Below are positions 2 to 35,185 of a DNA stretch of 64,000 nucleotides, one piece after another. Within the stretch, counting starts at the first letter, position 1, and each line of letters begins with the position of its first letter. The stretch is from Bacilli bacterium (GTDB lineage: Bacteria > Bacillota_I > Bacilli_A > RF39 > UBA660), in assembly GCA_017544165.1 (NCBI GenBank), contig JAFYER010000012.1, positions 67,401-131,400 on the forward strand, read 5' to 3'. The position numbers and the translations under genes were made by a program. Under the pieces are notes generated by a model, which was given only the letters and a program-made list of their open reading frames with translations, did not search any database and was not told the origin of the DNA.

Positions 2-1210
2 ACTAAGCCTGAAGAAACTAGGGCTGCTGATGAAAAAGGCAAGTTAGTTGCAGTTCCAACAAGGGAAATTGACAAAACAAAAAAAGGTGAACTTGTAAAA
101 ACTGGGCATAAAATTATTGATGTAATTCCTGAAGAAAAACAACAAGAAACAACAAAAAAAGAAAGAGATAGACTTAACAAAATTCTTAAAGGGATCTTCT
201 ACACCCTAGGTTCAGCTGCTGCTGTTGCTCTTATGGTTGCTGCTATTAAGTATTGTGTTAATCATCCAAATGGTAGAGAACTACCTGATGTTCCAACTAC
301 TACACCTAGTTCATCTTATTCATCTGATAGACTTAGACCAGGATGGACTACTGATGATTTACCAGTAATTACAGCTGCTCCACAAATAGTGAATCGTATT
401 GGTGACATTAACATTAATGACTATGATGAACTAATGGAATATGCAACTCAAATTCAAAGTGAATTAAAAGGCGATGAAAGTTCTAAAATATCTATTTATG
501 ATATTATCAAAGCTATTAAAATGGCTAACTGGGATTCATTAGAGGACAAAAGTGTATTTGACAATCGTGAAAGTGTAGTTCGTAGTACTTATAATGAAGG
601 TCTTATTGCTTCTGAACTTGGTTCTGATGCAATAGTTCAAAAAGATGTTAATTCTGATATTTTTATCACAAAACATCAAATGACTGATATATTAATGTGT
701 GTAACTGATAACAAATTATCTATCAATTGCTTTGATTGTGCTAAAGTTGATGATAGAGGTTACGATATCTATGCTGTAATTGATACTTGTATTTCAGGTA
801 TGAATAAACACGTTGATTCTGAAGTTGAGGAAGAAATCGAACAAGATAGATTATATGCAATGGTATTTAACGATGTTGTATCAAGAGCTGTTAGAAACTT
901 TACTATAGTAAACTCTGATGAGGCACTTGTAAGTACTATTTATTATGTACTTGGTACATTTAATGCAACATTACCAAGAAATATAGAACTTACTGCTGGT
1001 AGATCATATGGTACTGCTTATGGTAATGGTCATGAAAATGACGGTGGTTACGGAGACATATGTATCGAAGAATTATCTTCAGCTCTATATATTGTTCATG
1101 AAAGTACTAATCAATATACCGGAAATGATCAAGCGTGTATTTTCTACGGAGAATTCATAGATAAAGCGCTAATTGAACCATACCAAGGTCAAAGTTTGGG
1201 ATTAAATTAG
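2..1210 (+). CDS. Membrane-anchored protein of unknown function; 5' end lies outside the window
   Basis: The frame of tracked ORF 233..1210 stays open back to base 2 (TKPEETRAADEKGKLVAV...). One hydrophobic span (GIFYTLGSAAAVALMVAAI) is followed by about 320 aa of soluble sequence. No family recognised by eye. Confidence 0.6.
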   Translation, partial: TKPEETRAADEKGKLVAVPTREIDKTKKGELVKTGHKIIDVIPEEKQQETTKKERDRLNKILKGIFYTLGSAAAVALMVAAIKYCVNHPNGRELPDVPTTTPSSSYSSDRLRPGWTTDDLPVITAAPQIVNRIGDININDYDELMEYATQIQSELKGDESSKISIYDIIKAIKMANWDSLEDKSVFDNRESVVRSTYNEGLIASELGSDAIVQKDVNSDIFITKHQMTDILMCVTDNKLSINCFDCAKVDDRGYDIYAVIDTCISGMNKHVDSEVEEEIEQDRLYAMVFNDVVSRAVRNFTIVNSDEALVSTIYYVLGTFNATLPRNIELTAGRSYGTAYGNGHENDGGYGDICIEELSSALYIVHESTNQYTGNDQACIFYGEFIDKALIEPYQGQSLGLN

Positions 1211-1231
1211 AAAGTTTGGGGGTTTTGAAAA

Positions 1232-4168
1232 ATGTATAATAATAAAAATGGAAAAATATTAAATATCCTATTAGGCATTATTGCCCTATTCTTAATAATT
1301 TTCATCATTGCCTGGGTAGTTAATAAAGGAAGTAACACAGCTAATGCTGAAGCAAACTTTAAAAGTGATTTAAATAATATTCAAGAAAATGTTAAAGATT
1401 ACTTTGCAAATGATTTGCCTAATGAAATTGGTGATACAAATGTTTTATCCTTACAAGATTTATATGACTTAAATCTAACAAAAGAAGTTAGTTATGGTAA
1501 AACAAAATGTGATCCAGTAAACAGTTATTCATCAATTACTAAAATTAATGCCAATGAATATAAAATTAAAACAAATTTAATATGTGGTACAAAAGTTGAT
1601 AATATAACTGAAAAAATTACAAGAAATACTGTTGTTAATGATAATGACGGTAATGAAATAATCAATGAAGAAAAAGACAAAGTTCAATTAGATGTTAACA
1701 AAAGCGTTAACTCTAAGGATGGTAAAACAGCTGATGTTGTAAATTGTACTGGTCCTATTTGTACTGTACGTGAAATACCAACAACTTGTACAACTACTTA
1801 TACTTATGAATACGTAAAAAGAAGTGTTGAATGTCCAAGTGGTTACATACTACAAAATGGTACTTGTATTAAACAATCAAATGATATAATCGATGCTACT
1901 AAGAATTATTCTAAGGCTACTACTAAAGTTGTTGACGCAAGAGTAAATAATGGTGAAAGTTATAAAGTTTATACAGATCCAACTATTACACCTGGTACAT
2001 CTACTAAAGTATGTGATAATGGTAAACTTGAATCAGATGGATATTGTTATGTATATAAAAATAAATCATCTGAAATCGTTACATCTTGTCCTGATGGTTA
2101 TAAAGAAAAAGATGGTGCTTGTTATAAATACACTGATGTAATTACTAGCACTACTACTTCTTGTCCTGACGGTTATACTAAAGAAGGCAATTATTGTTAT
2201 AAATATACTGACTTAGTTACTAGTACTACTACTTCTTGTCCTGATGGTTATACTAAAAACGGTAATTACTGTTATAAATATACTGATTTAATCGAAGATG
2301 TTTCTTACTCTTGTCTATCTGGTTATACTAGAGAAGGTAATTATTGTTATAAATATACTGATTTAATTACCGATACTACTACTTCTTGTCCTGATGGTTA
2401 TACTAGAGAAGGTAATTATTGTTATAAATATACCGATATACTTACAGAAACTATTACTTCTTGTCCTTCTGGTTATACTAAAGAAGGTAACTATTGTTAT
2501 AAGTATGCTGATTTAATTATAAGCACTACTAAAACTTGTCCTGACGGTTATACTAAAGAAGGAAATTATTGTTATAAGTATGCTGATTTAATTACTAGCA
2601 CTACTACTTCATGCCCTTCTGGTTATACTAAAGAAGGTAACTATTGTTATAAGTATGCTGATTTAATTATTACAACTACTAATTCTTGCCCTTCTGGTTA
2701 TACTAAAGAAGGTAACTATTGTTATAAGTATGCTGATTTAATCACTACAACTACTACAACTTGTCCTGATGGTTATACTAAAGATGGTAATAAATGTTAT
2801 AAAACTGCTTCTGCTGTTAAAGCTTATACAGCTTGGGGTAATCCTGTAAGTACTTACCAAACATTTACTCAAGAATCTACTTATACAAACGAATTAACCA
2901 AAAAGGTTTTAGTAGGTACTGGTACAAAGGCAGGCATGACAATTTATACATATTCTATCTATCAAAGAACTTCATATTATACATGTGCTGCTGGTACATT
3001 AGGATCTGACAATAAATGTTATATTTATGCTAATCCTGTTAATGAAAGCAAAACCGAATGTCCTTCTGGTTATACTAGAAATGGTAATACTTGTTATATA
3101 AGAACTAACGTATCTACTTCTTCTTCATCAAAATGTCCTGATGGATACACTAGAAATGGTAATACATGCTACATGAGAACTAATGTAACTACTACTTCTT
3201 CTACTTCTTGTCCTTCTGGTTATACTCGAAGCGGAAATACTTGTTATATTAGAGCTAATGTAATTACAACTAATACTGGTTCTTGTCCTGATGGTTATAC
3301 TAAAAGTGGTAATACATGTTATTTAAGAAGAAATGTTACTAAAACTACTAACACTTATTGCCCTTCTGGTTATACTAAAAATGGCGATACTTGTTATATT
3401 AAGAAAGATTTAATTAAGTCTACTACCGGTTCTTGTCCTTCTGGTTATACTAAAGATGGCAATACTTGCTATATGAAAAGATCTTTAACTAAGAATACAT
3501 ATATTCATTGTCCTGATGGTTACACTAAAGACGGAGACACTTGTTATATTAAGAAAGATTTAATTAAATCTACTACTGGTTCTTGTCCTGATGGTTATAC
3601 TAAAGACGGTAATAAATGCTATATTAAGAAGAATGTAACTAAATCTATTACTGTTTCTTGTCCTTCTGGTTATACTATAGATGGCGATACTTGTTATATT
3701 AAGAAAGATTTAATTAAAACAACTAAATCGTATTGTCCTGATGGTTATGCTGATAATGGTACTAGATGTTATAAAAAATCTAAACCAAGAATTGAAACTA
3801 CTGAAACAACTTATAGTTGCAAAAGCGGTTATACAAAATCTGGTATTGGTGAAAACACTAAATGTTACAAAATAGTTAAGAGTGCTGATACTTACTATTG
3901 TGAAGATGAAAGCGCTACATTAAAAGATAAAAAATGTTATGTTACAGTTGAATCTAAATTTACTGGTTATTCTTGTCCAGCAGGTTATATAGTAAATGGT
4001 AGCCTATGTACAAAAACAACAACTGAAACAACTTCTCCAATATGGAGTAATGTTGATTACATTTACAGCAAAGAGGATTATGTTGCAGGATATCAAAAAA
4101 CTGGTAATGCTAAATTTGTAACAAACTGTGTTGAAATTAAAGAACCTGAAGAAATACATTATAAATAA
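1232..4168 (+). CDS. N-terminally anchored Cys-rich tandem-repeat surface protein (about 26 C-x10-13-C modules)
   Basis: ATG 1232 lies 9 nt after a GGGGG SD (1218-1222). N-terminal TM segment ILNILLGIIALFLIIFIIAWVV. Repeated motif CP[DS]GYT[KR]xG[ND]xCY separated by Thr/Ser-rich linkers. No LPXTG motif and no recognisable enzymatic motif. Long uninterrupted ORF in AT-rich DNA. Confidence 0.8.
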   Translation: MYNNKNGKILNILLGIIALFLIIFIIAWVVNKGSNTANAEANFKSDLNNIQENVKDYFANDLPNEIGDTNVLSLQDLYDLNLTKEVSYGKTKCDPVNSYSSITKINANEYKIKTNLICGTKVDNITEKITRNTVVNDNDGNEIINEEKDKVQLDVNKSVNSKDGKTADVVNCTGPICTVREIPTTCTTTYTYEYVKRSVECPSGYILQNGTCIKQSNDIIDATKNYSKATTKVVDARVNNGESYKVYTDPTITPGTSTKVCDNGKLESDGYCYVYKNKSSEIVTSCPDGYKEKDGACYKYTDVITSTTTSCPDGYTKEGNYCYKYTDLVTSTTTSCPDGYTKNGNYCYKYTDLIEDVSYSCLSGYTREGNYCYKYTDLITDTTTSCPDGYTREGNYCYKYTDILTETITSCPSGYTKEGNYCYKYADLIISTTKTCPDGYTKEGNYCYKYADLITSTTTSCPSGYTKEGNYCYKYADLIITTTNSCPSGYTKEGNYCYKYADLITTTTTTCPDGYTKDGNKCYKTASAVKAYTAWGNPVSTYQTFTQESTYTNELTKKVLVGTGTKAGMTIYTYSIYQRTSYYTCAAGTLGSDNKCYIYANPVNESKTECPSGYTRNGNTCYIRTNVSTSSSSKCPDGYTRNGNTCYMRTNVTTTSSTSCPSGYTRSGNTCYIRANVITTNTGSCPDGYTKSGNTCYLRRNVTKTTNTYCPSGYTKNGDTCYIKKDLIKSTTGSCPSGYTKDGNTCYMKRSLTKNTYIHCPDGYTKDGDTCYIKKDLIKSTTGSCPDGYTKDGNKCYIKKNVTKSITVSCPSGYTIDGDTCYIKKDLIKTTKSYCPDGYADNGTRCYKKSKPRIETTETTYSCKSGYTKSGIGENTKCYKIVKSADTYYCEDESATLKDKKCYVTVESKFTGYSCPAGYIVNGSLCTKTTTETTSPIWSNVDYIYSKEDYVAGYQKTGNAKFVTNCVEIKEPEEIHYK
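2084..2803 (+). repeat. In-frame 75-nt (25-aa) tandem repeat array A, about 9.6 units, consensus SCPDGYTKEGNYCYKY[TA]DLITSTTT
   Basis: Unit starts at 2084, 2159, 2234, 2309, 2384, 2459, 2534, 2609, 2684 and 2759. An identical 53-nt stretch (ccttctggttatactaaagaaggtaactattgttataagtatgctgatttaat) occurs three times, in the units starting 2459, 2609 and 2684. Confidence 0.9.
3056..3775 (+). repeat. In-frame 75-nt (25-aa) tandem repeat array B, about 10 units, consensus SCP[DS]GYT[KR]xGNTCYI[KR]xN/DLxKxTxx
   Basis: Unit starts at 3056, 3131, 3206, 3281, 3356, 3431, 3506, 3581, 3656 and 3731. The last five units alternate two subtypes, giving a 150-nt higher-order period. Confidence 0.9.
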
Positions 4169-7003: not shown

Positions 7004-7034
7004 GCTAAAAAAATCAATCCATAAGGATTGATTA
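7004..7034 (-). terminator. Intrinsic terminator after the CxxC gene
   Basis: Stem aatcaatcc(7012-7020)/ggattgatt(7025-7033), followed on the minus strand by a U-run (plus-strand A-run 7005-7011). Confidence 0.65.
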
Positions 7035-7622
7035 TTTTCTTTTGCTTAACGCTTCAACAACACGATTTGTATCACATGAAGATTTAATTAAGTATGTAAC
7101 TAAAAGCACAATTACACAAATAATATTTGTTATAATAACGCCTACACTGCTTCCACCAGAAGATGATTCCTCTTTTAAATGGTCTAAGCAATTAGTTTTG
7201 CCTTTTTCATAACATTTTACAATATCTTTATCGCCATCTTCATATACTTCGTTGATTACTGTTTCAAGGCTAGAATTATAGCCAGCAGCAGCATATACGT
7301 CACTGACTACAACAAATGGTGTTGCTTGATAAGTTGCATCTTTAAATTTAACTGGATCAGCAGCAAGGAAAGCCTCAGCAACTTTTTTACCTAAAGCATA
7401 ATCTTTACCATCTTCCCAATCAACATGGTCAACATAAAGTTCTTTTTCAACAATTTCAAATTTTTCATTGTATGAATCAAGTCCTTGAAGATATTCCATT
7501 TGCGCTTCGCAAGCAGGACATCCACCAGCTTCGAAAATATAAACTTTTACTTTACTCTTAGCATTTACTGCTATAGGTAAAAGGCAAAGAACTGCAACAA
7601 TTGTAACTATTAATTTTTTCAT
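7032..7622 (-). CDS. Exported thioredoxin-fold CxxC protein with C-terminal membrane anchor
   Basis: Signal peptide MKKLIVTIVAVLCLLPIAVNA, KVYIFEAGGCPACEAQ (beta strand followed by CxxC, as in thioredoxin/glutaredoxin folds) and C-terminal TM segment VGVIITNIICVIVLLVTYLI. Confidence 0.6.
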   Translation of the reverse strand: MKKLIVTIVAVLCLLPIAVNAKSKVKVYIFEAGGCPACEAQMEYLQGLDSYNEKFEIVEKELYVDHVDWEDGKDYALGKKVAEAFLAADPVKFKDATYQATPFVVVSDVYAAAGYNSSLETVINEVYEDGDKDIVKCYEKGKTNCLDHLKEESSSGGSSVGVIITNIICVIVLLVTYLIKSSCDTNRVVEALSKRK

Positions 7623-17250: not shown

Positions 17251-18135
17251 TCAATTATGGCGTTTTTTTATGTCCATTAAAAGTAATTTTAAAAAATCTT
17301 CATTATCCATTTCATTAATTGCAAAACATTTCTTTCCTAAATCTTTGAAACTTGCTCCAGATGAATATAGCTTTTTCTTATCAACTATGATAAATCTATC
17401 ATGAAATGAATCATTATTTATAAATGTTACATTATTATACTGACTTTCATATTTTTTCTTTAAAACATCATCGATATTTTTAGATACTATAGTTATCTTT
17501 TTATCAACATTCTTTAATATATCTAATAATTCTTTTCCTGCATAATTATCAATAATAATTATTTCTTTTTTGGCCTTCTTTAATATTGTCATTACTACTG
17601 AATATGCATCATATAATTCTCCCTCGAAAAAAAGATAATTTTTGGCTATATCTTTGGGATTAAATTTATCAAATAGTTCATCAATTCTTTTGGTATTATT
17701 ATCTACTTTATCCTCGAGTAGTAAGAATCTATTAGGTAGTAATTGATTACTATAATTTATATAATGTCTCATTTTTACAAAGGCATCCATTATTTGAATG
17801 CTTGTATTAATGGCTTCTTTTGATTTCAAAATTGTCGCAAGCATTGCTACACCTTGTTCTGTAAAAACTCTTATATCATATCGTCGTCCACCGTTGCCAT
17901 TTTTAATTGTGAGGTCGCATTTTGCGACCTCAAGATTTTTAAAATCATTTTGGTTAATTAACCAACTAAACCTTTCTGGAAATTTTCTAATATTTCTTTT
18001 TACTGCTTCATTTATTCTTTTTGTTTCTACATGATATAATTCTGCCAAGTCATAATCAAACATTACCTCCACTCCATTGATTTCATAAATCATATTTTTA
18101 ATATTTAAAACTTCTTTTTCTATTATTTCATTCAT
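17251..18135 (-). CDS. ORF6N/KilA-N-like DNA-binding domain fused to a PLD-like (HxK-type) C-terminal domain
   Basis: The N-terminus (LAELYHVETKRINEAVKRNIRKFPERF...FTEQGVAMLATILKS) is typical of ORF6N-family domains. The C-terminus (HDRFIIVDKKKLYSSGASFKDLGKK) resembles the phospholipase-D/nuclease-superfamily signature. Confidence 0.6.
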   Translation of the reverse strand: MNEIIEKEVLNIKNMIYEINGVEVMFDYDLAELYHVETKRINEAVKRNIRKFPERFSWLINQNDFKNLEVAKCDLTIKNGNGGRRYDIRVFTEQGVAMLATILKSKEAINTSIQIMDAFVKMRHYINYSNQLLPNRFLLLEDKVDNNTKRIDELFDKFNPKDIAKNYLFFEGELYDAYSVVMTILKKAKKEIIIIDNYAGKELLDILKNVDKKITIVSKNIDDVLKKKYESQYNNVTFINNDSFHDRFIIVDKKKLYSSGASFKDLGKKCFAINEMDNEDFLKLLLMDIKKRHN

Positions 18136-25630: not shown

Positions 25631-26827
25631 TTACCTTCTTTCTAATATACAGACACTCTCGCAATGATAAGTGTAACTAAACATATCAAGGATATATACT
25701 TTTTTAACATTGTAATTATCTATAAATGATTTTAAATCTTCAGATAATTTTTGAGTTTCACATGATATGTAGATAATACTTTCGGGTTTTATCTCAAGGA
25801 TTTTACTAATTGTTCTTTGGTCTAATCCTTTTCTTGGCGGATCAATAATAACTGTATCAATTTTATCTTTAATAAGATGTATTTTATCTTCGACTTTACC
25901 TAAAATAAAATCTATATTGTCTCGTTTATTCATTTTAGCGTTTTTTAAGGCATTAACTACTGCACTTGGAATAACCTCGATGCCATAAACTTTGTTTGCA
26001 TTTTTACTAGCGACTATTGAAAGGGTTCCAACGCCAGAATATAAATCTAAAACATTTTTACCTTTAACATTATCATTAATAATTGCAAATAATTTACTGT
26101 TTATATAGGAATTTACTTGAAAAAAAGCATCATAAGCAACTTCGAAGAAAGTGTTATTTATAATATCTATAAATTTATTATCACCATAAATACATTTATC
26201 ATTTAAAATAATACCTACGACTTTTTTATTTGGATAATCTTCTTTATTTAAAATAATATCATCTTCAGTTTTAATAGATATTAGAAGTTCATCATTATAA
26301 TTACATCTAATGGTTACATCACCATTTTTAATATTCATTTTCTTTATATCATCAATAAAGGTATTTATACATGCTATTGTAATATGACAGTTATCTATTT
26401 CAATAATATTATGGGTTCCTTCTTCATAAAAACCAATAATTCCATCACTTACTTTAAGCTCTATTTTATTGCGATAATTCTTATCATTTTCATTTTTAAT
26501 AACTTCAATAACAGGTGTAATACCTACTCGATTTAAAATATTTTTTACTCTTTCTTTTTTATATTCAAGTGTTTTTTCATATTCCATATTTTGAAGTTGA
26601 CAACCACCACATTTATAGTAATATGGGCAAAAAGCTGATAAAGCATCTTCTTTTCTTTCAATAAACTTTTTTACTTTAGCTTTAATATACGTTTTTGTTT
26701 CTTTGATAACCTCGAAAATAACTTTATCACCAGGAATTGTTTTACTGACAAAAACAGTTTTACCATTGATAAAACCGATGCCGTTTCCCATATGATCCAT
26801 TTTTTCAATAACTACAACGTTTTTCAT
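25631..26827 (-). CDS. RNA (uracil-5-)-methyltransferase, TrmA/RlmD family, with TRAM domain and Fe-S cysteines
   Basis: N-terminal TRAM-like beta domain, the cluster CPYYYKCGGCQLQ, SAM motif VLDLYSGVGTLS, and C-terminal DPPRKG and the catalytic Cys region (YISCE). Confidence 0.8.
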   Translation of the reverse strand: MKNVVVIEKMDHMGNGIGFINGKTVFVSKTIPGDKVIFEVIKETKTYIKAKVKKFIERKEDALSAFCPYYYKCGGCQLQNMEYEKTLEYKKERVKNILNRVGITPVIEVIKNENDKNYRNKIELKVSDGIIGFYEEGTHNIIEIDNCHITIACINTFIDDIKKMNIKNGDVTIRCNYNDELLISIKTEDDIILNKEDYPNKKVVGIILNDKCIYGDNKFIDIINNTFFEVAYDAFFQVNSYINSKLFAIINDNVKGKNVLDLYSGVGTLSIVASKNANKVYGIEVIPSAVVNALKNAKMNKRDNIDFILGKVEDKIHLIKDKIDTVIIDPPRKGLDQRTISKILEIKPESIIYISCETQKLSEDLKSFIDNYNVKKVYILDMFSYTYHCESVCILERR

Positions 26828-26872
26828 AAGTTTATTATACTAAAAATCATCATAAATGATAATACTATAAAT

Positions 26873-28264
26873 ATGAATAATTATATTAAAAGAATTAAAA
26901 ATGAATTTGCAAGTAGTCCTGATTTAGTAATAAAAAAAATAAACATTAATTTATTACATAAAGTTTATGTAATTTTTTTAGATACATTAAGTAGTCAAGA
27001 TAAAATAAATGACTATATCTTAAAAAAGTTAGTAAATATTAATCTTATTTTTAATATTGAAAATATCTTACCGGGTGGAAATGTAGTTAAATTAAAAAAG
27101 TATGATGAAATAGAGTACTATCTATATAATGGTTTTACTATTGTTATTGATAATAAAAATATATATGCAGTAGAAACAAGAGCAGATATCGTAAGAAGCA
27201 TCTCAACAAATGAAACGGAGCCTTCGATTAAAGGACCTAAAAGTGCCTTTGTGGAAAACTTTCAAATCAATATTGGACTTATAAAGAAAAGAATTAAAAA
27301 TCATCATTTGAAAATTAAAAATATCACTATAGGAAGAATTAGTAATATAAATGTTGGCATATTATATATAGATAATATTGCTAAAAAAGAATTGATAGAA
27401 ACTGTTTATCAAAAACTTGAAAGTGTTGATATAGATCTTATAAATGACTCAGCAGACTTATACCCCTATTTAACTAAAAAAAGCATTTTTCCTACCCTTA
27501 TTTATACCGAAAGACCGGATAGATGTGCTGATGCTCTTGCAAGTGGTAAAATTGTAATTATTTGTGACGAATCGCCAAATGCTATCATTCTTCCTGCTTT
27601 TTTAGTAGATTTTCTTCATCCCTATTCTGATAGATATAATAAATCGGTTAATATCAATCTTACTAAAATAATTAGATTAATTTGTTTTTTCCTATCAATA
27701 ATGGTACCAGCCTTTTATATTTCCATTATCAATTATAATCAAGAGGCTATACCTACAAGTTTAATTATTAATTTTGCAACCCAGCGTAGTGATATTCCTT
27801 TTCCTGCGGTAATCGAGTGCTTTATGATGTTAATTATTTGCGAAATACTAAGAGAAAGTGATTTAAGATTTCCTACCAAATATGGTTCATCCGTCTCCGT
27901 CTTAGGAGCCCTTCTTATCGGAGAAGCTGCCGTAAGTGCTGGCCTTGTAACACCAATTATGATAATTATTACAGCATTTACTTATATATCTTCTTTAATA
28001 TTTACCGATATTGAAATTGGTAACGCCATTAGAACTTATCGTTTTATTTTTTTAATAATAAGTGCCATGTTTGGTCTATATGGCTTTATGATTACTTTTA
28101 TCTTTTTTATCCTTAATTTATGTGATACAAAAAGCTTTGATTTTTTTTATACATTTCCGATATCACCTTTTGATAATAGTTATTTTAAAGATGTCTTTTT
28201 TAAACTAAAAAACAATCTACGAAGTAAATATTTAACTAAAAACATCACAAAGGAAAAACTATGA
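26873..28264 (+). CDS. Spore germination protein, GerA (A-subunit) family
   Basis: The pattern ...SSPDLVIKKININ..., RADIVRSISTNETEPSIKGPKSAFVENF and C-terminal TM segments are typical of GerAA/GerKA. Start moved to ATG 26873 to avoid the overlap with the divergent gene. No obvious SD. Confidence 0.8.
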   Translation: MNNYIKRIKNEFASSPDLVIKKININLLHKVYVIFLDTLSSQDKINDYILKKLVNINLIFNIENILPGGNVVKLKKYDEIEYYLYNGFTIVIDNKNIYAVETRADIVRSISTNETEPSIKGPKSAFVENFQINIGLIKKRIKNHHLKIKNITIGRISNINVGILYIDNIAKKELIETVYQKLESVDIDLINDSADLYPYLTKKSIFPTLIYTERPDRCADALASGKIVIICDESPNAIILPAFLVDFLHPYSDRYNKSVNINLTKIIRLICFFLSIMVPAFYISIINYNQEAIPTSLIINFATQRSDIPFPAVIECFMMLIICEILRESDLRFPTKYGSSVSVLGALLIGEAAVSAGLVTPIMIIITAFTYISSLIFTDIEIGNAIRTYRFIFLIISAMFGLYGFMITFIFFILNLCDTKSFDFFYTFPISPFDNSYFKDVFFKLKNNLRSKYLTKNITKEKL

Positions 28265-29292
28265 AAAAAATATTGTTAATATTCATTATTTTGTTTTTAA
28301 CGGGTTGTTATGATTATATGGAAATAAATGATTTAGGTTTTATTACAGCAATTGGTATTGACTATGAAGAAGATACCTATAAAGCAACATTTGAAATACT
28401 TGATGATAGTGATGATATTCAAAAAATAAAGTCAGAAAGTAAAACAATAAGTAATTTATTTGATAATATCAGTTTAATTATTTCTAAAGTACCTGATTAT
28501 CATCATTTAAAAACAGTTATCATATCTAAAAGCGTAGCTCAAAATCATTTAAAAGAACTAACTGACTTTCTTATTCGAAGTCCCGAGATAAGAAACGAAT
28601 TTTTATTAGTCGTTTGTGAGGGTACAAGTCCTTTAGAACTATTTAAAAAAGATAGTAAAGAAAGTATCGGGGAAAAGATTGCTAAACTTATTAAAACTAG
28701 TAAAAATCAAACAAATATTTCTTATGATAGGTCTTTCGAGGATATTTTAGAAAAAATATTAAATAAAAAAATGGAAGCTACCGCTAGCGTTATTACTTTA
28801 GAAAATGATGAAATCACTTTAAAAGGTATTGGTCTTTTTAAGGGTTACAATTACAAATACTTCCTTGATACTAAAAAATCTTCCTTACTTAACATATTAA
28901 ATAAGGAAAATACCAACTACTCCATCTTTATAGAAAATATGGAAACCAAAATATATGAATCAAATGTTAAATATGATTTTAAAGAAAACACGGTAACTAT
29001 CAATATAAATGCTAAAGCTAAAATAATAGAAAATACTACTCAAATGGATCTAAAAGATAATAAAAACTATTTAATTATTGAAAAAAAGTTAAATAAAGTT
29101 TTAGAAAATGATTTAAATGATTTAATAAATAACTTAAAAGATAATAATATCGATGCTATTAATTTAAATGATAGACAATATAAAAAAACGAGGAAGAATA
29201 GAAATAATTATTTAAAAAATGCTGATATTAAAATTAATATCGATACTAAAATCAATTGGAAAGGATCAATATTTCAAATAGATGAAAACTAA
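28261..29292 (+). CDS. Spore germination lipoprotein, Ger(x)C family
   Basis: Lipobox LFLTGC followed by YDYMEINDLGFITAIGIDY, as in GerAC-type proteins. 4-nt overlap with the A subunit. Confidence 0.72.
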   Translation: MKKILLIFIILFLTGCYDYMEINDLGFITAIGIDYEEDTYKATFEILDDSDDIQKIKSESKTISNLFDNISLIISKVPDYHHLKTVIISKSVAQNHLKELTDFLIRSPEIRNEFLLVVCEGTSPLELFKKDSKESIGEKIAKLIKTSKNQTNISYDRSFEDILEKILNKKMEATASVITLENDEITLKGIGLFKGYNYKYFLDTKKSSLLNILNKENTNYSIFIENMETKIYESNVKYDFKENTVTININAKAKIIENTTQMDLKDNKNYLIIEKKLNKVLENDLNDLINNLKDNNIDAINLNDRQYKKTRKNRNNYLKNADIKINIDTKINWKGSIFQIDEN

Positions 29293-30235
29293 AGAACAAT
29301 TTAGTATAACTTACTTTTTAACAAGACCTTTTTTCTTTGGAATTATCTATTCCCAAATTTTTGGTTTGTCGGAAACTGATAGCATCATATCATGCTTATT
29401 AGGAACAATTATTGGATTATTTATCATCTTTCTAATATCAAAAATGGATTACTCAGATAAAAAATTTAAAACTATTCAAATATTTTTTTACTTATTCTTA
29501 TTTATTTTAGCAATATCATCGATTGAAACATATGCTTCATCTTTCCTGCTTACGAAGACTCCTAAAATAATTATTATAATACCCGCTATAATGCTTGTTA
29601 GTTATGCAAATCAAAAAGATATGAGTGTCATTAAAAAATGTGCTTTTATCTTTGCTATTATAAGCATTTTTTCCACTATCATAATTTGCCTTTTACTAAG
29701 TAATTATCTAAATATTCAAAATATCTTACCATTTTTTTCTCATAAACCCTTAAATATTTTGAAATCAGCAATGATTTTTGGAGTAATGTCAGCATCTCCC
29801 AACATACTTTTAAAAGATGAAAATATCCCATTAAAAAATCATCTTATTTTTTATTTAATTACAACGATAATTAATACCACAATAGCCTTTTTAACTCTTG
29901 CTATTTTAACGCCAGATGTAGCTAAGATTTATAGTTATCCAGAATATATGGTTTTAAAAAGAATAAGAATCTTTGAATTCATTGAGAATATCGAAAATTT
30001 AAGTGTTTTAATATGGTATTTTGATTATTTCTTTTTATTAGTTTATATCTTCAAAAAAATGCAAGAAATCATAAAAAAAAGAGTTATCTTTTTCATAATT
30101 ATTATTATGACAACTCTCTTAACAACCTTTTTTATAGCAAATGATTTTTATATAACAATATGGATTTATAAATACTCATCAATAATCATAAGTACTTTTT
30201 TAATATTATTTATATCCACCTTGAAACATAAATAA
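29282..30235 (+). CDS. Spore germination permease-like protein, Ger(x)B family (tentative)
   Basis: Polytopic membrane protein that overlaps the C-subunit gene by 11 nt. Assignment rests mainly on operon context. Confidence 0.6.
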   Translation: MKTKEQFSITYFLTRPFFFGIIYSQIFGLSETDSIISCLLGTIIGLFIIFLISKMDYSDKKFKTIQIFFYLFLFILAISSIETYASSFLLTKTPKIIIIIPAIMLVSYANQKDMSVIKKCAFIFAIISIFSTIIICLLLSNYLNIQNILPFFSHKPLNILKSAMIFGVMSASPNILLKDENIPLKNHLIFYLITTIINTTIAFLTLAILTPDVAKIYSYPEYMVLKRIRIFEFIENIENLSVLIWYFDYFFLLVYIFKKMQEIIKKRVIFFIIIIMTTLLTTFFIANDFYITIWIYKYSSIIISTFLILFISTLKHK

Positions 30236-32009: not shown

Positions 32010-32711
32010 GTGATAATTATTTTCTTTCATTTAATAAATATTATTAAAAATATGTTATTTTTTACAGGTAGTTACTCCAATAATGTATTTTTAGAGCCTC
32101 TTTCTAAAGAGGAAGAAGAAAAATATGTTAAATTAATGTTCGAAGGAAACGCTGATGCAAGAAATAAATTAATCGAACACAATTTAAGGTTAGTAGCGCA
32201 TATTGTTAAAAAATTTTCCGCTAATGATAATATGACTGATGATTTGATTTCAATTGGTACCATTGGTTTAATCAAAGGTATCGACACTTATAAAGATAAT
32301 AAAAAAACAAAAATTACTACGTATGCGGCTAGATGCATTCAAAATGAGATACTCATGTATTTTCGTGCTAATAAAAAAAGTAATAATGATGTTTCCCTAT
32401 CCGATTCAATTGGTTATGATAAAGAAGGAAACGAAATCAATTTAATTGATGTCATCGAAGATAAAACTCCTGATATGATTGAAAACATCTTTTTAAAAGA
32501 TAATATTAAGTCTTTAGAAAAGTATTTAAAACTACTTAATAACCGGGAAAGAGATATAATTGCTAAAAGATATGGTTTAAATGGTGAAGATGAAAAAACC
32601 CAAAAACAGATAGCTAAAGATTTCCATATTTCAAGAAGTTATGTATCGCGAATCGAAAAAAGAGCTTTAACTAAACTTTTAAAAGAATTTATTAAAGAAA
32701 AAAAACAATAA
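32010..32711 (+). CDS. sigK: RNA polymerase sporulation sigma factor K (pro-sigma-K), uninterrupted
   Basis: LIEHNLRLVAHIVKKF, DLISIGTIGLIKGI, TYAARCIQNEILMYFR and ISRSYVSRIEKRAL closely track B. subtilis SigK as I recall it. The GTG 32010 start gives a 21-aa pro-sequence before YSNNVFLEPLS (B. subtilis has YVKNNAFPQPLS). Confidence 0.85.
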   Translation: MIIIFFHLINIIKNMLFFTGSYSNNVFLEPLSKEEEEKYVKLMFEGNADARNKLIEHNLRLVAHIVKKFSANDNMTDDLISIGTIGLIKGIDTYKDNKKTKITTYAARCIQNEILMYFRANKKSNNDVSLSDSIGYDKEGNEINLIDVIEDKTPDMIENIFLKDNIKSLEKYLKLLNNRERDIIAKRYGLNGEDEKTQKQIAKDFHISRSYVSRIEKRALTKLLKEFIKEKKQ

Positions 32712-32769: not shown

Positions 32770-33777
32770 ATGGAGTTTTATAATTCAAAGACAGGTGAAA
32801 GAATACCTGATGATTTAATCAAGAAAGCTTTTGCCGGCGAGATAAAATTAGACAATGTCAGTATTGGTAATAGAAATATGGGTAATACCTCACCCGTTCA
32901 AGAACCAGAAATTGCCAAAGTTGAGGATACACCTAAAAAAGTTCAAGAAGAGCCAGAATTTGAATTTTTTAAGATGGTTAATGATCATGCTGATGATGTC
33001 AAAGCAAGAGAGGTCTTAAGTAGTTATGAAGCGGTTACTCATCGCGATACAAATCCAAGAACTCCCCAAAAACCAGAAGTAAAAAGAAGCGAAGCAGGAA
33101 CTACTCTATATTATAAAGCTTTAAATGCTAGTATTTCTCTTTCTAAAGGCGACGAATCGCCAAAAAATTTACCAAAACGTGATCGTAATCGTAAAAGTAA
33201 AATTGGAACAACAATTATTGCCCTAGCCCTTACGGGAATTATTACAATTACTGCTTATGCTGGTATTGAAAAGGTTGCTAAAAAAGTAAATGAAGGAAAA
33301 GATTTATCCGCAACACGCGAATCAATTAGTACCGTTTTATCTGATTCAAATGATTCAACAAGTATTGTAAAAAGACATACTCATCGTACTGATGATAATC
33401 AAGGATTTTGGTTTGATAATTTTGCAATGGCTGAGGATTTAATAAATAAACTTCCAGACTCAGCATTTGATGCCGCACTATACACCGTTTATCTAGATAT
33501 GGGTCAAAATGTTAGTAATGAATATATCGATAATTTTGGAAGAGTAATAAGTGCATGTGGTAGAATTGCTTCCCCAAGTGATAATCCGATTGCCTACTCA
33601 AGAACGAATAATTGTCATAATTTCGAAGAATTTGCTCGTAAAAATGGTTTTGTCGATGAAAATGGTGAGCCTTCGATGGAAGCATATAAAGCATTTGGAA
33701 TTACAGCAGTTAAAAGTTATCATAATTTTGGTGTAAATGTTGTTACTGAAGAAGGACCAGAATTGGGAGGAAGATAA
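32770..33777 (+). CDS. Bitopic membrane protein, function unknown
   Basis: About 150 aa of charged N-terminal region, one TM segment (IGTTIIALALTGIITITAYAGI) and a roughly 165-aa C-terminal domain. GGTGG SD upstream. Confidence 0.5.
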   Translation: MEFYNSKTGERIPDDLIKKAFAGEIKLDNVSIGNRNMGNTSPVQEPEIAKVEDTPKKVQEEPEFEFFKMVNDHADDVKAREVLSSYEAVTHRDTNPRTPQKPEVKRSEAGTTLYYKALNASISLSKGDESPKNLPKRDRNRKSKIGTTIIALALTGIITITAYAGIEKVAKKVNEGKDLSATRESISTVLSDSNDSTSIVKRHTHRTDDNQGFWFDNFAMAEDLINKLPDSAFDAALYTVYLDMGQNVSNEYIDNFGRVISACGRIASPSDNPIAYSRTNNCHNFEEFARKNGFVDENGEPSMEAYKAFGITAVKSYHNFGVNVVTEEGPELGGR

Positions 33778-34627: not shown

Positions 34628-35185
34628 TTAATTGTTGACAGTATTATCTAAATAATCATCATTTAAATCATCAACGTTGATATCAAGTTCCTTTTCATTT
34701 TCACTATCAAATATTTCCTCATACTCATCTGCATCTTCCTCGACTGCTATTTTTACTGTAGTATTACCAATTATTTCAACACCCAACTCTTTTTCAACTT
34801 TTAAAGTAATTAGTCCATTTGTAATTTTAACGTCAGTTACTGTTGGTTGTTTTAAGCATTCGACGATTATTTCACATTTATCATCTAATTTGATATTGTT
34901 TTTAAGATTTACGTTCATAATATCACTATAGTTAAATTTTCTAGTCACTACCGTCGTCTTAGTATCGCCTTCGTATGAATACCAGACATTTATATCAAAA
35001 GATCCATTTAAATTTACTTTTCCACTATTTATATGACCTGAAAAAGCATGATTGATAACCCAACAGCCCAAAACAGTATTTGGTTTTTCATCACATTCGA
35101 TTTCAAAAGTTGAATTACTATTTTTCTTACATTTACCGATTATTGCTTTCGTAACAATTTCCTTATAACTAGTCAAATATATCAC
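34628..35185 (-). CDS. cotE: Outer spore coat morphogenetic protein CotE
   Basis: YKEIVTKAIIGK..., LGCWVINH and DINVWYSY plus the acidic C-terminal tail parallel B. subtilis CotE as I recall it. The true start may be TTG 35176, which gives M-TSYKEIV after the GGAAGGTG SD. Confidence 0.8.
   Translation of the reverse strand: MIYLTSYKEIVTKAIIGKCKKNSNSTFEIECDEKPNTVLGCWVINHAFSGHINSGKVNLNGSFDINVWYSYEGDTKTTVVTRKFNYSDIMNVNLKNNIKLDDKCEIIVECLKQPTVTDVKITNGLITLKVEKELGVEIIGNTTVKIAVEEDADEYEEIFDSENEKELDINVDDLNDDYLDNTVNN

Follow-up and report, generated by a model that had tools for sequence, protein, structure and literature searches.

What would a Gram-positive bacterium build from a predicted surface protein that carries 58 cysteines (5.9% of its 978 residues), none of them before residue 93? 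The question is raised by an open reading frame (ORF) near the left end of a 64,000-nt stretch of DNA (the window; positions 67,401 to 131,400 of contig JAFYER010000012.1, assembly GCA_017544165.1) from a Bacilli bacterium. An earlier note on this DNA had described the product as built almost entirely from about 26 two-cysteine modules, with 55-60 cysteines in all, and both counts proved accurate. We found 24 modules that fit the pattern C-x2-G-x(6-7)-C with C-x10-C spacing and share the consensus CPxGYTKxGNxCY. They start at residues 201, 261, 286-511 (10 copies), 585, 610-835 (10 copies) and 915, and three further, looser cysteine pairs (863/878, 890/902 and 93/118) bring the total to about 27 two-cysteine units. 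Both 10-copy arrays keep an exact period of 25 aa. When the 24 modules are aligned, both cysteines and the glycine are invariant, and the tyrosines that follow the glycine and the second cysteine are at least 90% conserved. In the DNA, Tandem Repeats Finder placed array 1 at 2080-2803 (period 75 nt, 9.7 copies, 82% match, score 845) and array 2 at 3059-3773 (period 75 nt, 9.5 copies, score up to 678); two 75-nt arrays of this quality are far beyond chance. The modules are real, but the description as almost entirely modular overstates their share, as an alignment of 11 closer relatives revealed four conserved regions outside the arrays (aa 34-140, 171-285, 524-584 and 848-978). What the earlier note missed was the architecture of the family to which the protein belongs, its partner gene and the coupled evolution of its two arrays.

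The family comprises at least 197 relatives at E ≤ 1e-3, all of which have an N-terminal transmembrane (TM) segment and multiple modules. They occur only in metagenome-assembled genomes (MAGs) of uncultured gut and rumen bacteria, with labels that include Bacilli bacterium, Bacillales bacterium, Mycoplasma sp. CAG:472, Mollicutes bacterium and Candidatus Coprovivens. Alignments of the 11 closer relatives and of 79 family members gave one fixed order of parts: cytoplasmic tail, TM segment, N-terminal domain, variable linker, base, array 1, centre, array 2 and C-terminal domain. Most relatives are 600-850 aa long and the window copy is an expanded allele; its closest relative, L006, has 932 aa and is 64% identical.

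Across this family the two arrays change length in lock-step. The central domain was placed by a hidden Markov model (HMM) and the two-cysteine units were counted on each side of it; over 40 closer-clade proteins the two counts correlate with r=0.97. The second arm has one unit more than the first (n2=n1+1) in 32 of the 40, the commonest combinations being (6,7), found 13 times, and (7,8), found 9 times. The extremes are (12,13) in L006 and (13,14) in the window protein, which has 27 and 29 cysteines on the two sides of its centre. Default HMMER filters missed the centre of the window protein; a relaxed run with the filters off, which added noise, covered 179 proteins and gave r=0.72 with diagonal bands. 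As a control for shared ancestry, nearest neighbours by N-terminal domain were taken as phylogenetically disjoint pairs, and the 32 pairs that differ were compared. The same number of cysteines had changed on both sides in 17 of these sister pairs, and the direction of change was the same in 26; one side alone had changed in five pairs, and the two sides had moved in opposite directions in a single pair.

Pairwise alignments resolve these changes into one 25-30-aa indel in each arm, with a well-aligned centre between them. Examples are P0018 and P0014 (95.8% identity, 25+25 aa), L006 and the window protein (25+25), and P0113 and P0101 (57+56), while the indels that separate P0040 from P0052 form the mirror pattern 55,30 | 30,55. 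In 13 pairs each arm has a single insertion, and how far it lies from the centre in the left arm follows how far it lies in the right arm (Spearman 0.82, p 7e-4; permutation p=0.003). A single slippage or unequal crossover cannot extend both arrays without duplicating the centre, and selection must therefore maintain the matched arms. The arrays themselves are in flux, with turnover of units within genomes: the DNA of units from one genome is up to 93% identical in the window and 99% in L006, whereas units from different genomes reach 83% at best. This lock-step, mirror-symmetric evolution of two arrays in one protein is new here.

The module on which this evolution acts is best described, from its sequence, as a 25-aa beta-hairpin like the C-terminal hairpin of an epidermal growth factor (EGF) domain, used singly. 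AlphaFold2 (AF2) predicts two or three short strands per module. The C-terminal sub-domain of EGF (cEGF, EGF_Tme5) shares the pattern C-x2-G-[YF]-x3-G-x2-C and is a two-stranded hairpin with one disulfide; a complete EGF domain has six cysteines and three disulfides in about 40 aa, whereas the window unit has two cysteines per 25 aa and a bacterial host. The earlier note had proposed an EGF-like hairpin, and this fares better in the family than in the window protein. Several relatives exceed the Pfam cut-off for cEGF (among them P0061 with 68.6 bits and P0033 with 48.2 bits), but the window protein passes only for EGF_Tme5 (PF09064), and only in the summed score (25.9 bits against a cut-off of 22), as no single domain does; for cEGF (PF12662) it is unreported at E ≤ 1 in full length, and its C-terminal fragment scores 10.8 against 26.6 bits. 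When a profile of the 24 modules was compared with all PDB sequences, the best match was an insect stress-response peptide (6ee9; GTCPSGYVRRGTFC) at E 0.034. In this ENF peptide, Manduca stress-response peptide-1, the matched segment aligns to the module stretch tsCPdGYtknGntC; we take it to be a free-standing one-disulfide hairpin that resembles the C-terminal sub-domain of EGF. It is a lone secreted peptide of 25 aa that forms no array, and the borderline E value does not imply shared ancestry. Granulin has the local motif sCPDGYT in common with the module (profile E 0.068), in a match that spans eight residues only. The granulin fold is a stack of disulfide-stapled hairpins, with 12 cysteines per 55-aa unit and CC doublets, unlike the two-cysteine modules. 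By analogy with cEGF, the ENF peptide and granulin, the two cysteines of each module probably form a single cross-strand disulfide.

A different chemistry would follow if the cysteines stayed reduced. The gut lumen is reducing, and with two cysteines in each module a pair of modules on facing arms would bring four thiolates together, for example as one metal site per rung, so that the arrays might bind metal or sense redox state. The spacing C-x2-G-Y-x3-G-x2-C fits the disulfide-forming units of cEGF and the 6ee9 peptide, and C-x2-C knuckles are absent; we regard the metal-binding alternative as improbable. One candidate for an extracytoplasmic thiol-disulfide oxidoreductase or oxidase is encoded about 3 kb away (7032-7622, minus strand). 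Its predicted product of 196 aa starts with a signal peptide, ends in a TM anchor and contains a thioredoxin-like KVYIFEAGGCPACEAQ motif, with weak matches to Redoxin and Thioredoxin_2 that lie under the cut-offs.

Hydropathy places the sole hydrophobic segment of the window protein at the N-terminus, at about aa 5-35, and AF2 predicts one unbroken helix over aa 7-58 (predicted local distance difference test, pLDDT, 83-92). We read this segment as an uncleaved signal-anchor; the window protein may be cleaved at ANA/EA (aa 37-41), but the N-terminal alignment contains no AxA site that is conserved among relatives. The earlier note had reported an N-terminal TM anchor and no known wall-anchor or enzymatic motif, and the present searches agree on both points. 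A motif search of the 978-aa protein recovered no LPXTG, lipobox, GW, choline-binding or prepilin motif, its C-terminus lacks the combination of LPXTG-type motif, hydrophobic segment and charged tail of a sortase anchor, and no known enzymatic motif was found in it. The sequence thus supports a membrane-anchored, extracytoplasmic repeat protein. Within the N-terminal anchor domain, P63, G67, L74, C93, S98, K113, L116, C118 and E127 are invariant, and a second AF2 model, of residues 1-285, agrees with the full-length model.

This N-terminal region raised the possibility of a modular type IV pilin or pseudopilin in which an N-terminal helix and sheet bear a large C-terminal passenger. AF2 indeed packs a long N-terminal helix on a small sheet with a cysteine pair, and a pilin-like conjugal protein in NCBIfam matched faintly, at a sub-threshold E of 0.0065. 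A regular-expression search for the class III signal G-[FM]-T-L-x-E found none, no G...E register is conserved between clades, and pilus-machinery genes were not seen in the window. In a Foldseek search of the aa 1-285 model against the PDB, the best match was the YadA anchor at E 0.096, and the top 50 contained no pilin. The pilin hypothesis, which had come from the AF2 model of the N-terminal domain, was rejected on the Foldseek result and the missing class III signal, and we consider it very improbable.

The anchor domain has a wider distribution than the modules. A profile of the N-terminal 140 residues matched 2080 clusters (E ≤ 1e-3, among 1.84 billion representatives), and a separate homologue search with the N-domain profile returned short fragments only; the A5 profile, which covers the N-terminal TM segment and a domain of about 100 aa, matches the window ORF with 183 bits. 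About half of the long matches have few cysteines, and the three of ten scanned in which a domain could be named carry other surface domains in place of the modules, such as Big_2 or the Listeria-Bacteroides repeat. One of them, P0122 (671 aa), has the N-terminal alpha/beta domain twice in tandem, followed by three Big_2 domains, an example both of duplication of the anchor domain and of its combination with unrelated passengers. At the other end of the family proteins, 188 of 225 members have the signature [WYF]x1-3TGx1-3[KRT] within their last 60 aa, against 116 of 1125 control windows, and members with non-Cys passengers keep it too. That the N- and C-terminal ends are conserved jointly across unrelated passengers suggests that they work together.

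Between these ends, the family base contains a cluster of three or four cysteines and two isolated modules; in the window protein these are C172, C177 and C186, followed by C201-C212 and C261-C272. The family centre has invariant W-G-N-P and Y-x-Y-x-x-Y-x-R elements, which in the closer clade correspond to the invariant residues W535, G536, N537, P538, Y572, Y574, Y577 and R579. The C-terminal domain ends in ...W-S-x8-12-G-Y-x-x-T-G-x-x-K-F-V-T-x-C across the family, and the window protein has the motif W...G[YW]xxTGxx[KR] within its last 60 aa as IWSNVDYIYSKEDYVAGYQKTGNAK. Of 44 tabulated closer-clade proteins, 43 have exactly one tail cysteine. For the window protein and 22 relatives an obvious neighbouring partner exists for every cysteine except the base cluster C172/C177/C186 and the tail cysteine C966. 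If all cysteines are oxidised, C966 would otherwise be without a partner, and the tail would be tied to the base.

Taking these observations together, we propose, with belief and doubt in about equal measure, that the protein forms a folded-back, length-matched, two-armed stalk of the cell envelope that is expressed vegetatively and carries its central domain at the tip. An antiparallel fold-back is the simplest structure in which equal arms and mirrored insertion sites would be required. The signal-anchor and the conserved juxtamembrane domain would hold the protein in the cytoplasmic membrane with the remainder outside the cell; arm 1 would lead outward, the centre would form the turn and the distal tip, and arm 2 would return antiparallel, so that modules equidistant from the tip lie side by side. 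The N-terminal anchor domain and the C-terminal motif would then meet at the membrane-proximal base, which in the window protein is possibly closed by a disulfide from C966 to C172, C177 or C186. Stalk length would be tuned by the gain or loss of one module per arm, from about 3+3 in common alleles to 10+10 in the window. Together with a co-transcribed membrane partner, such a stalk would probably carry its conserved tip across the wall or past it, where the tip would make contacts or bind, and the variable height of the stalk could match the thickness of the wall or of a surface layer.

A linear rod adhesin would use the same parts in another way: the arrays would be serial spacers, the binding domain would be C-terminal and distal, and the matched lengths would come from ancestry or recombination. 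This is the default layout of repeat-bearing Gram-positive surface adhesins; the C-terminal domain is conserved and well predicted, and no structural model shows the arms paired. A rod nevertheless leaves unexplained the coupled one-module-per-arm indels, which occur between near-identical alleles and at mirrored positions, and the co-conservation of the C-terminal motif with the N-terminal anchor across unrelated passengers also speaks against it. We consider it unlikely, though with an appreciable chance of being correct.

Several observations weigh against the folded-back stalk. The argument from cysteine parity fails in 18 relatives that have a four-cysteine base cluster. The arms of the window protein carry net charges of -7 and +17, the latter over aa 610-847 with Lys/Arg-rich linkers, and close relatives have the same sign pattern, but charge complementarity of the arms was rejected as a family-wide feature, with 82 of 132 proteins only. 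The structure prediction and Foldseek search that the earlier note had recommended gave confident domains and left the global arrangement unreliable: the full-length AF2 model, built on the family alignment, has a mean pLDDT of 72 with moderate to low values in the arrays and a predicted template-modelling score (pTM) of 0.36, so that the fold-back is without support from a structure model, and Foldseek returned no significant analogue of it from the PDB (best E 0.18). Indel positions within tandem repeats are partly ambiguous, and allelic recombination may spread arms that are already matched and so inflate the number of independent paired events. The reducing gut lumen also counts against disulfides, and the CPAC thioredoxin-like gene was detected only in L001 and L002 among the related loci (69% identical, same position; the flanks are short), for which reason a conserved linkage of that gene to the operon was rejected. 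The partner gene is recognisable only in the closer clade, and distant members have a different, J-like TM protein upstream. The whole reading draws on sequence, synteny and statistics, and the organism is uncultured.

Strong conservation of the tip, synteny with core genes and a housekeeping promoter suggest that the tip has a conserved ligand or a structural role in the envelope, rather than a rapidly evolving host receptor. A more far-reaching version of the folded-back stalk, which we offer tentatively and think somewhat doubtful, would make it the first example of an undescribed class of Gram-positive envelope organelle: a membrane-rooted, disulfide-stapled ladder of hairpins with its arms paired rung by rung. 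Compensatory gain or loss of half a rung in each arm would set its height, and it would serve as a molecular ruler or stilt that presents the conserved tip at a fixed distance from the membrane.

Cysteine-rich repeat stalks and EGF-like hairpins are already known kinds of structure, and the module itself is found elsewhere. The earlier note could not place the repeat in any named bacterial family, and indeed no curated family in Pfam or NCBIfam covers the protein. The repeat is not restricted to this lineage, however: alphaproteobacterial TraN proteins and giant proteins encoded on plasmids contain the same modules. In the long TraN proteins P0092 and P0060, these two-cysteine modules, with a 25-30-aa period, form an array of about 700 aa (BLASTP 6e-59) that lies N-terminal to the Pfam TraN domain (PF06986), and the modules are present on 39 proteobacterial plasmids, with tblastn matches up to 2e-40 over 75% of the query. 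The giant 'Ig-like domain-containing' proteins of plasmids from Shewanella, Sphingobium and Burkholderia contain long runs of the same module, but they lack the N-terminal anchor domain, central domain and C-terminal motif of the family and belong to Gram-negative hosts and other domain contexts. One of these, a 3267-aa protein of Shewanella aestuarii plasmid pPN3F2_1 (L025, 4226-14029), contains a long module run, and its gene has signal peptidase I and a TrbC-family F-type pilus assembly gene as neighbours; this protein may be an unrecognised mating adhesin. TraN is cysteine-rich and has been modelled with all its cysteines in disulfides, a variable tip domain, and its C-terminal part folded back, beneath the tip, onto its N-terminal part (PMC9246713).

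These likenesses, and the fact that one relative is labelled TraN by JGI, might suggest a conjugation or mating-pair adhesin that is akin to TraN, by function or by descent, and is carried by an integrated mobile element: the best annotated matches are TraN and plasmid giant proteins with the same module array. TraN is an outer-membrane protein of Gram-negative plasmids, whereas the window protein is chromosomal, syntenic, N-terminally anchored and Gram-positive. The TraN domain of about 240 positions (PF06986) has no match in the window protein or its relatives, and the similarity is confined to the repeats. Type IV secretion, relaxase and integrase genes are not nearby: the surroundings consist of ruvAB, pheST and FAD-dependent genes, at a place in the chromosome that many species share. 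A mating role is accordingly most improbable. No phage record matched the module arrays and the plasmid matches are confined to the repeats, on which grounds a mobile-element origin was rejected.

A further parallel is Myxococcus TraA, a surface receptor with a cysteine-rich repeat stalk, thought to serve presentation, and an obligatory operon partner (PMC12045341). It differs in its N-terminal head, its MYXO-CTERM anchor and its repeat family, its partner TraB is an outer-membrane barrel, and a fold-back of matched arms is not reported for it; the NCBIfam model of the Myxococcus cysteine-rich repeat has no match in the window protein. NCBIfam yielded only the single sub-threshold pilin-like match, PHROGs gave nothing meaningful, and the N-terminal, central and C-terminal regions fall outside all Pfam and NCBIfam models. 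Against the viral BFVD, Foldseek matched the full-length model to A0A6M6DDH0 (981 aa, unnamed) at E 5e-13 with 17% identity over 813 columns; this is its only strong structural match, the next being E5EQ87 at E 2e-4. The three conserved regions and the partner of this unannotated family are new here.

The partner gene ends 21 nt upstream of the repeat gene and scores 460 bits against the partner profile over window positions 2-1210. All 19 closer-clade loci (L001-L003, L006-L022) have an orthologue of the partner immediately ahead of the repeat gene, in the same orientation. The partner protein has no match in Pfam, NCBIfam, PHROG or the PDB, and a protein search with its profile returned unannotated relatives only. 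The position of the ribosome-binding site within the 21-nt gap points to co-transcription of the two genes; no convincing internal promoter was found ahead of the repeat gene. Upstream of the partner gene, all 19 loci have the element TTGAC[AT]-N14-16-TGnTAnnAT; about 21 nt after it comes AAAGGAGG and then the partner start codon. This consensus comes from the related loci, as the promoter of the window copy itself falls beyond the left edge. By its sequence the element is a sigma-A promoter that lies close to the consensus and has an extended -10, and its retention across species argues for strong vegetative transcription of the two-gene unit.

The promoter bears on the suggestion of the earlier note that the protein might belong to a spore appendage. 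Spore surface layers are often rich in cysteine and cross-linked; the window contains GerA/B/C, a sporulation-type sigma factor and CotE, and a related contig contains CotJB and GerA, so an exosporium, coat or forespore-membrane component would not be out of place. The sigma-A extended -10 promoter is nevertheless present at 19 of 19 loci, where a sporulation-sigma consensus is absent, the N-terminal anchor is of the Sec type, unlike coat proteins assembled by the mother cell, and the neighbours ruvAB and pheST are housekeeping genes. Sporulation-specific expression is unsupported by the promoter consensus, and the spore-associated alternative is disfavoured, with a small chance of being right.

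The features of the two-gene unit are collected in the following table.

Table 1. Features of the partner gene and the repeat gene, in window positions
Feature	Position	Strand	Description and basis
Partner gene, 5' end beyond window edge	2..1210	+	Cytoplasmic part helical; single TM segment (GIFYTLGSAAAVALMVAAIKY); conserved ectodomain, about 300 aa
Ribosome-binding site, purine-rich (G-rich), TTTGGGGG	1215..1222	+	In the 21-nt gap between partner stop and ATG
Complete 978-aa ORF	1232..4168	+	ATG start; stop codon 4166-4168; uninterrupted
Short cytoplasmic tail (aa 1-11) and single hydrophobic segment (aa ~12-33)	1232..1330	+	Hydropathy; AF2
N-terminal anchor domain, aa 34-140	1331..1651	+	Predicted helix and 4-5-stranded sheet; AF2 pLDDT 90-97; invariant pair C93/C118
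Low-complexity linker (aa 141-170) and base region (aa 171-285)	1652..2086	+	Alignment; cysteine tabulation
Arm 1: 10 tandem 25-aa modules, aa 286-523	2087..2800	+	Consensus CP[DS]GYTKEGNYCYKY[TA]DLIxxTTxS; net charge -7
Cys-free central domain, aa 524-584 (KAYTAWGNPVSTYQT...IYTYSIYQRTSYY)	2801..2983	+	AF2 pLDDT 85-92
Arm 2: degenerate module C585-C596 and 10 tandem 25-aa modules (aa 610-847)	2984..3772	+	Repeat analysis
C-terminal domain, aa 848-978	3773..4165	+	Cysteine pairs 863/878, 890/902 and 915/926; AF2 pLDDT 82-88
Family-wide C-terminal motif with lone tail cysteine, aa 936-966 (PIWSNVDYIYSKEDYVAGYQKTGNAKFVTNC)	4037..4129	+	Alignment; motif count

The partner/repeat pair sits between ruvAB and a block of an FAD protein and pheST, and this synteny is kept across species; the genes downstream of the repeat gene are convergent. 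The pheST neighbourhood is also kept in more distant members, where the TM protein encoded upstream is another one, whose N-terminal domain is J-like. At two such loci the upstream TM proteins (L004, 6204-7979; L005, 5787-6977) have a cytoplasmic J-like N-terminus, with a Pfam DnaJ match at E 6e-9 in L005; no HPD tripeptide is evident. In the distant clade, the J-like domain is thus a hint of a connection to chaperones at the cytoplasmic face.

The window is low-GC chromosomal DNA (about 28%). Translations read as housekeeping genes include pheST, CTP synthase, addAB, ezrA, ackA/pta and a sulfatase of the LtaS type. Also read from translations were a GerA/GerC/GerB operon (26792-30235, plus strand), a sporulation-type sigma factor with a pro-sequence (32010-32711, plus strand) and a CotE-like protein (34628-35185, minus strand), and these three mark the host, from a 'Mycoplasma-like' MAG lineage, as an endospore former. 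The host is a spore-forming, peptidoglycan- and lipoteichoic acid-making lineage of gut Bacilli, as yet uncultured. Right after the sporulation sigma gene, positions 32770-33777 (plus strand) encode a 335-aa protein whose cytoplasmic part is rich in Lys, Glu and Pro; a single TM segment joins this part to an ectodomain that was not recognised, no family search having been made with the protein. A lone 294-aa ORF at 17251-18135 (minus strand), amid ctrA-like housekeeping genes, has an N-terminus that reads like the DNA-binding domains of phage antirepressors and the ORF6N type, and may be a mobile-element remnant.

Within the family, P0014 represents one 90%-identity cluster of 2080 member sequences. 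Two of its alleles, P0014 (674 aa) and P0018 (624 aa), are exactly one module per arm apart, which suggests that length polymorphism is common within one abundant gut species.

The earlier note had called the cysteine density unusual for a secreted Firmicute protein. The argument holds, though it is softer for a gut organism, as the exclusion of cysteine from exported Firmicute proteins is pronounced in aerobes and weaker in anaerobes (PMC2823432). Against this background, the occurrence of such a protein family in a Firmicute is a further new element. If the cysteines are oxidised, the protein would have about 29 disulfides, exceptional for a Firmicute surface protein, and this would imply an oxidative folding capacity that is undescribed for this lineage. 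A widespread branch of gut Bacilli, as yet uncultured, conserves the family and probably expresses it strongly; the family exposes an annotation gap, as Pfam and NCBIfam cover the hairpin motif alone. The 25-aa one-disulfide unit is a compact and apparently modular spacer, with possible use in protein engineering. The lock-step arrays provide an argument for a folded-back stalk that needs only sequences, and the same comparison could serve as a general detector of paired repeat arms, including those of TraN-like adhesins. If the folded-back stalk is true, the compensatory indel co-evolution of two separated arrays in one protein would be unusual, and would be usable for the inference of tertiary structure.

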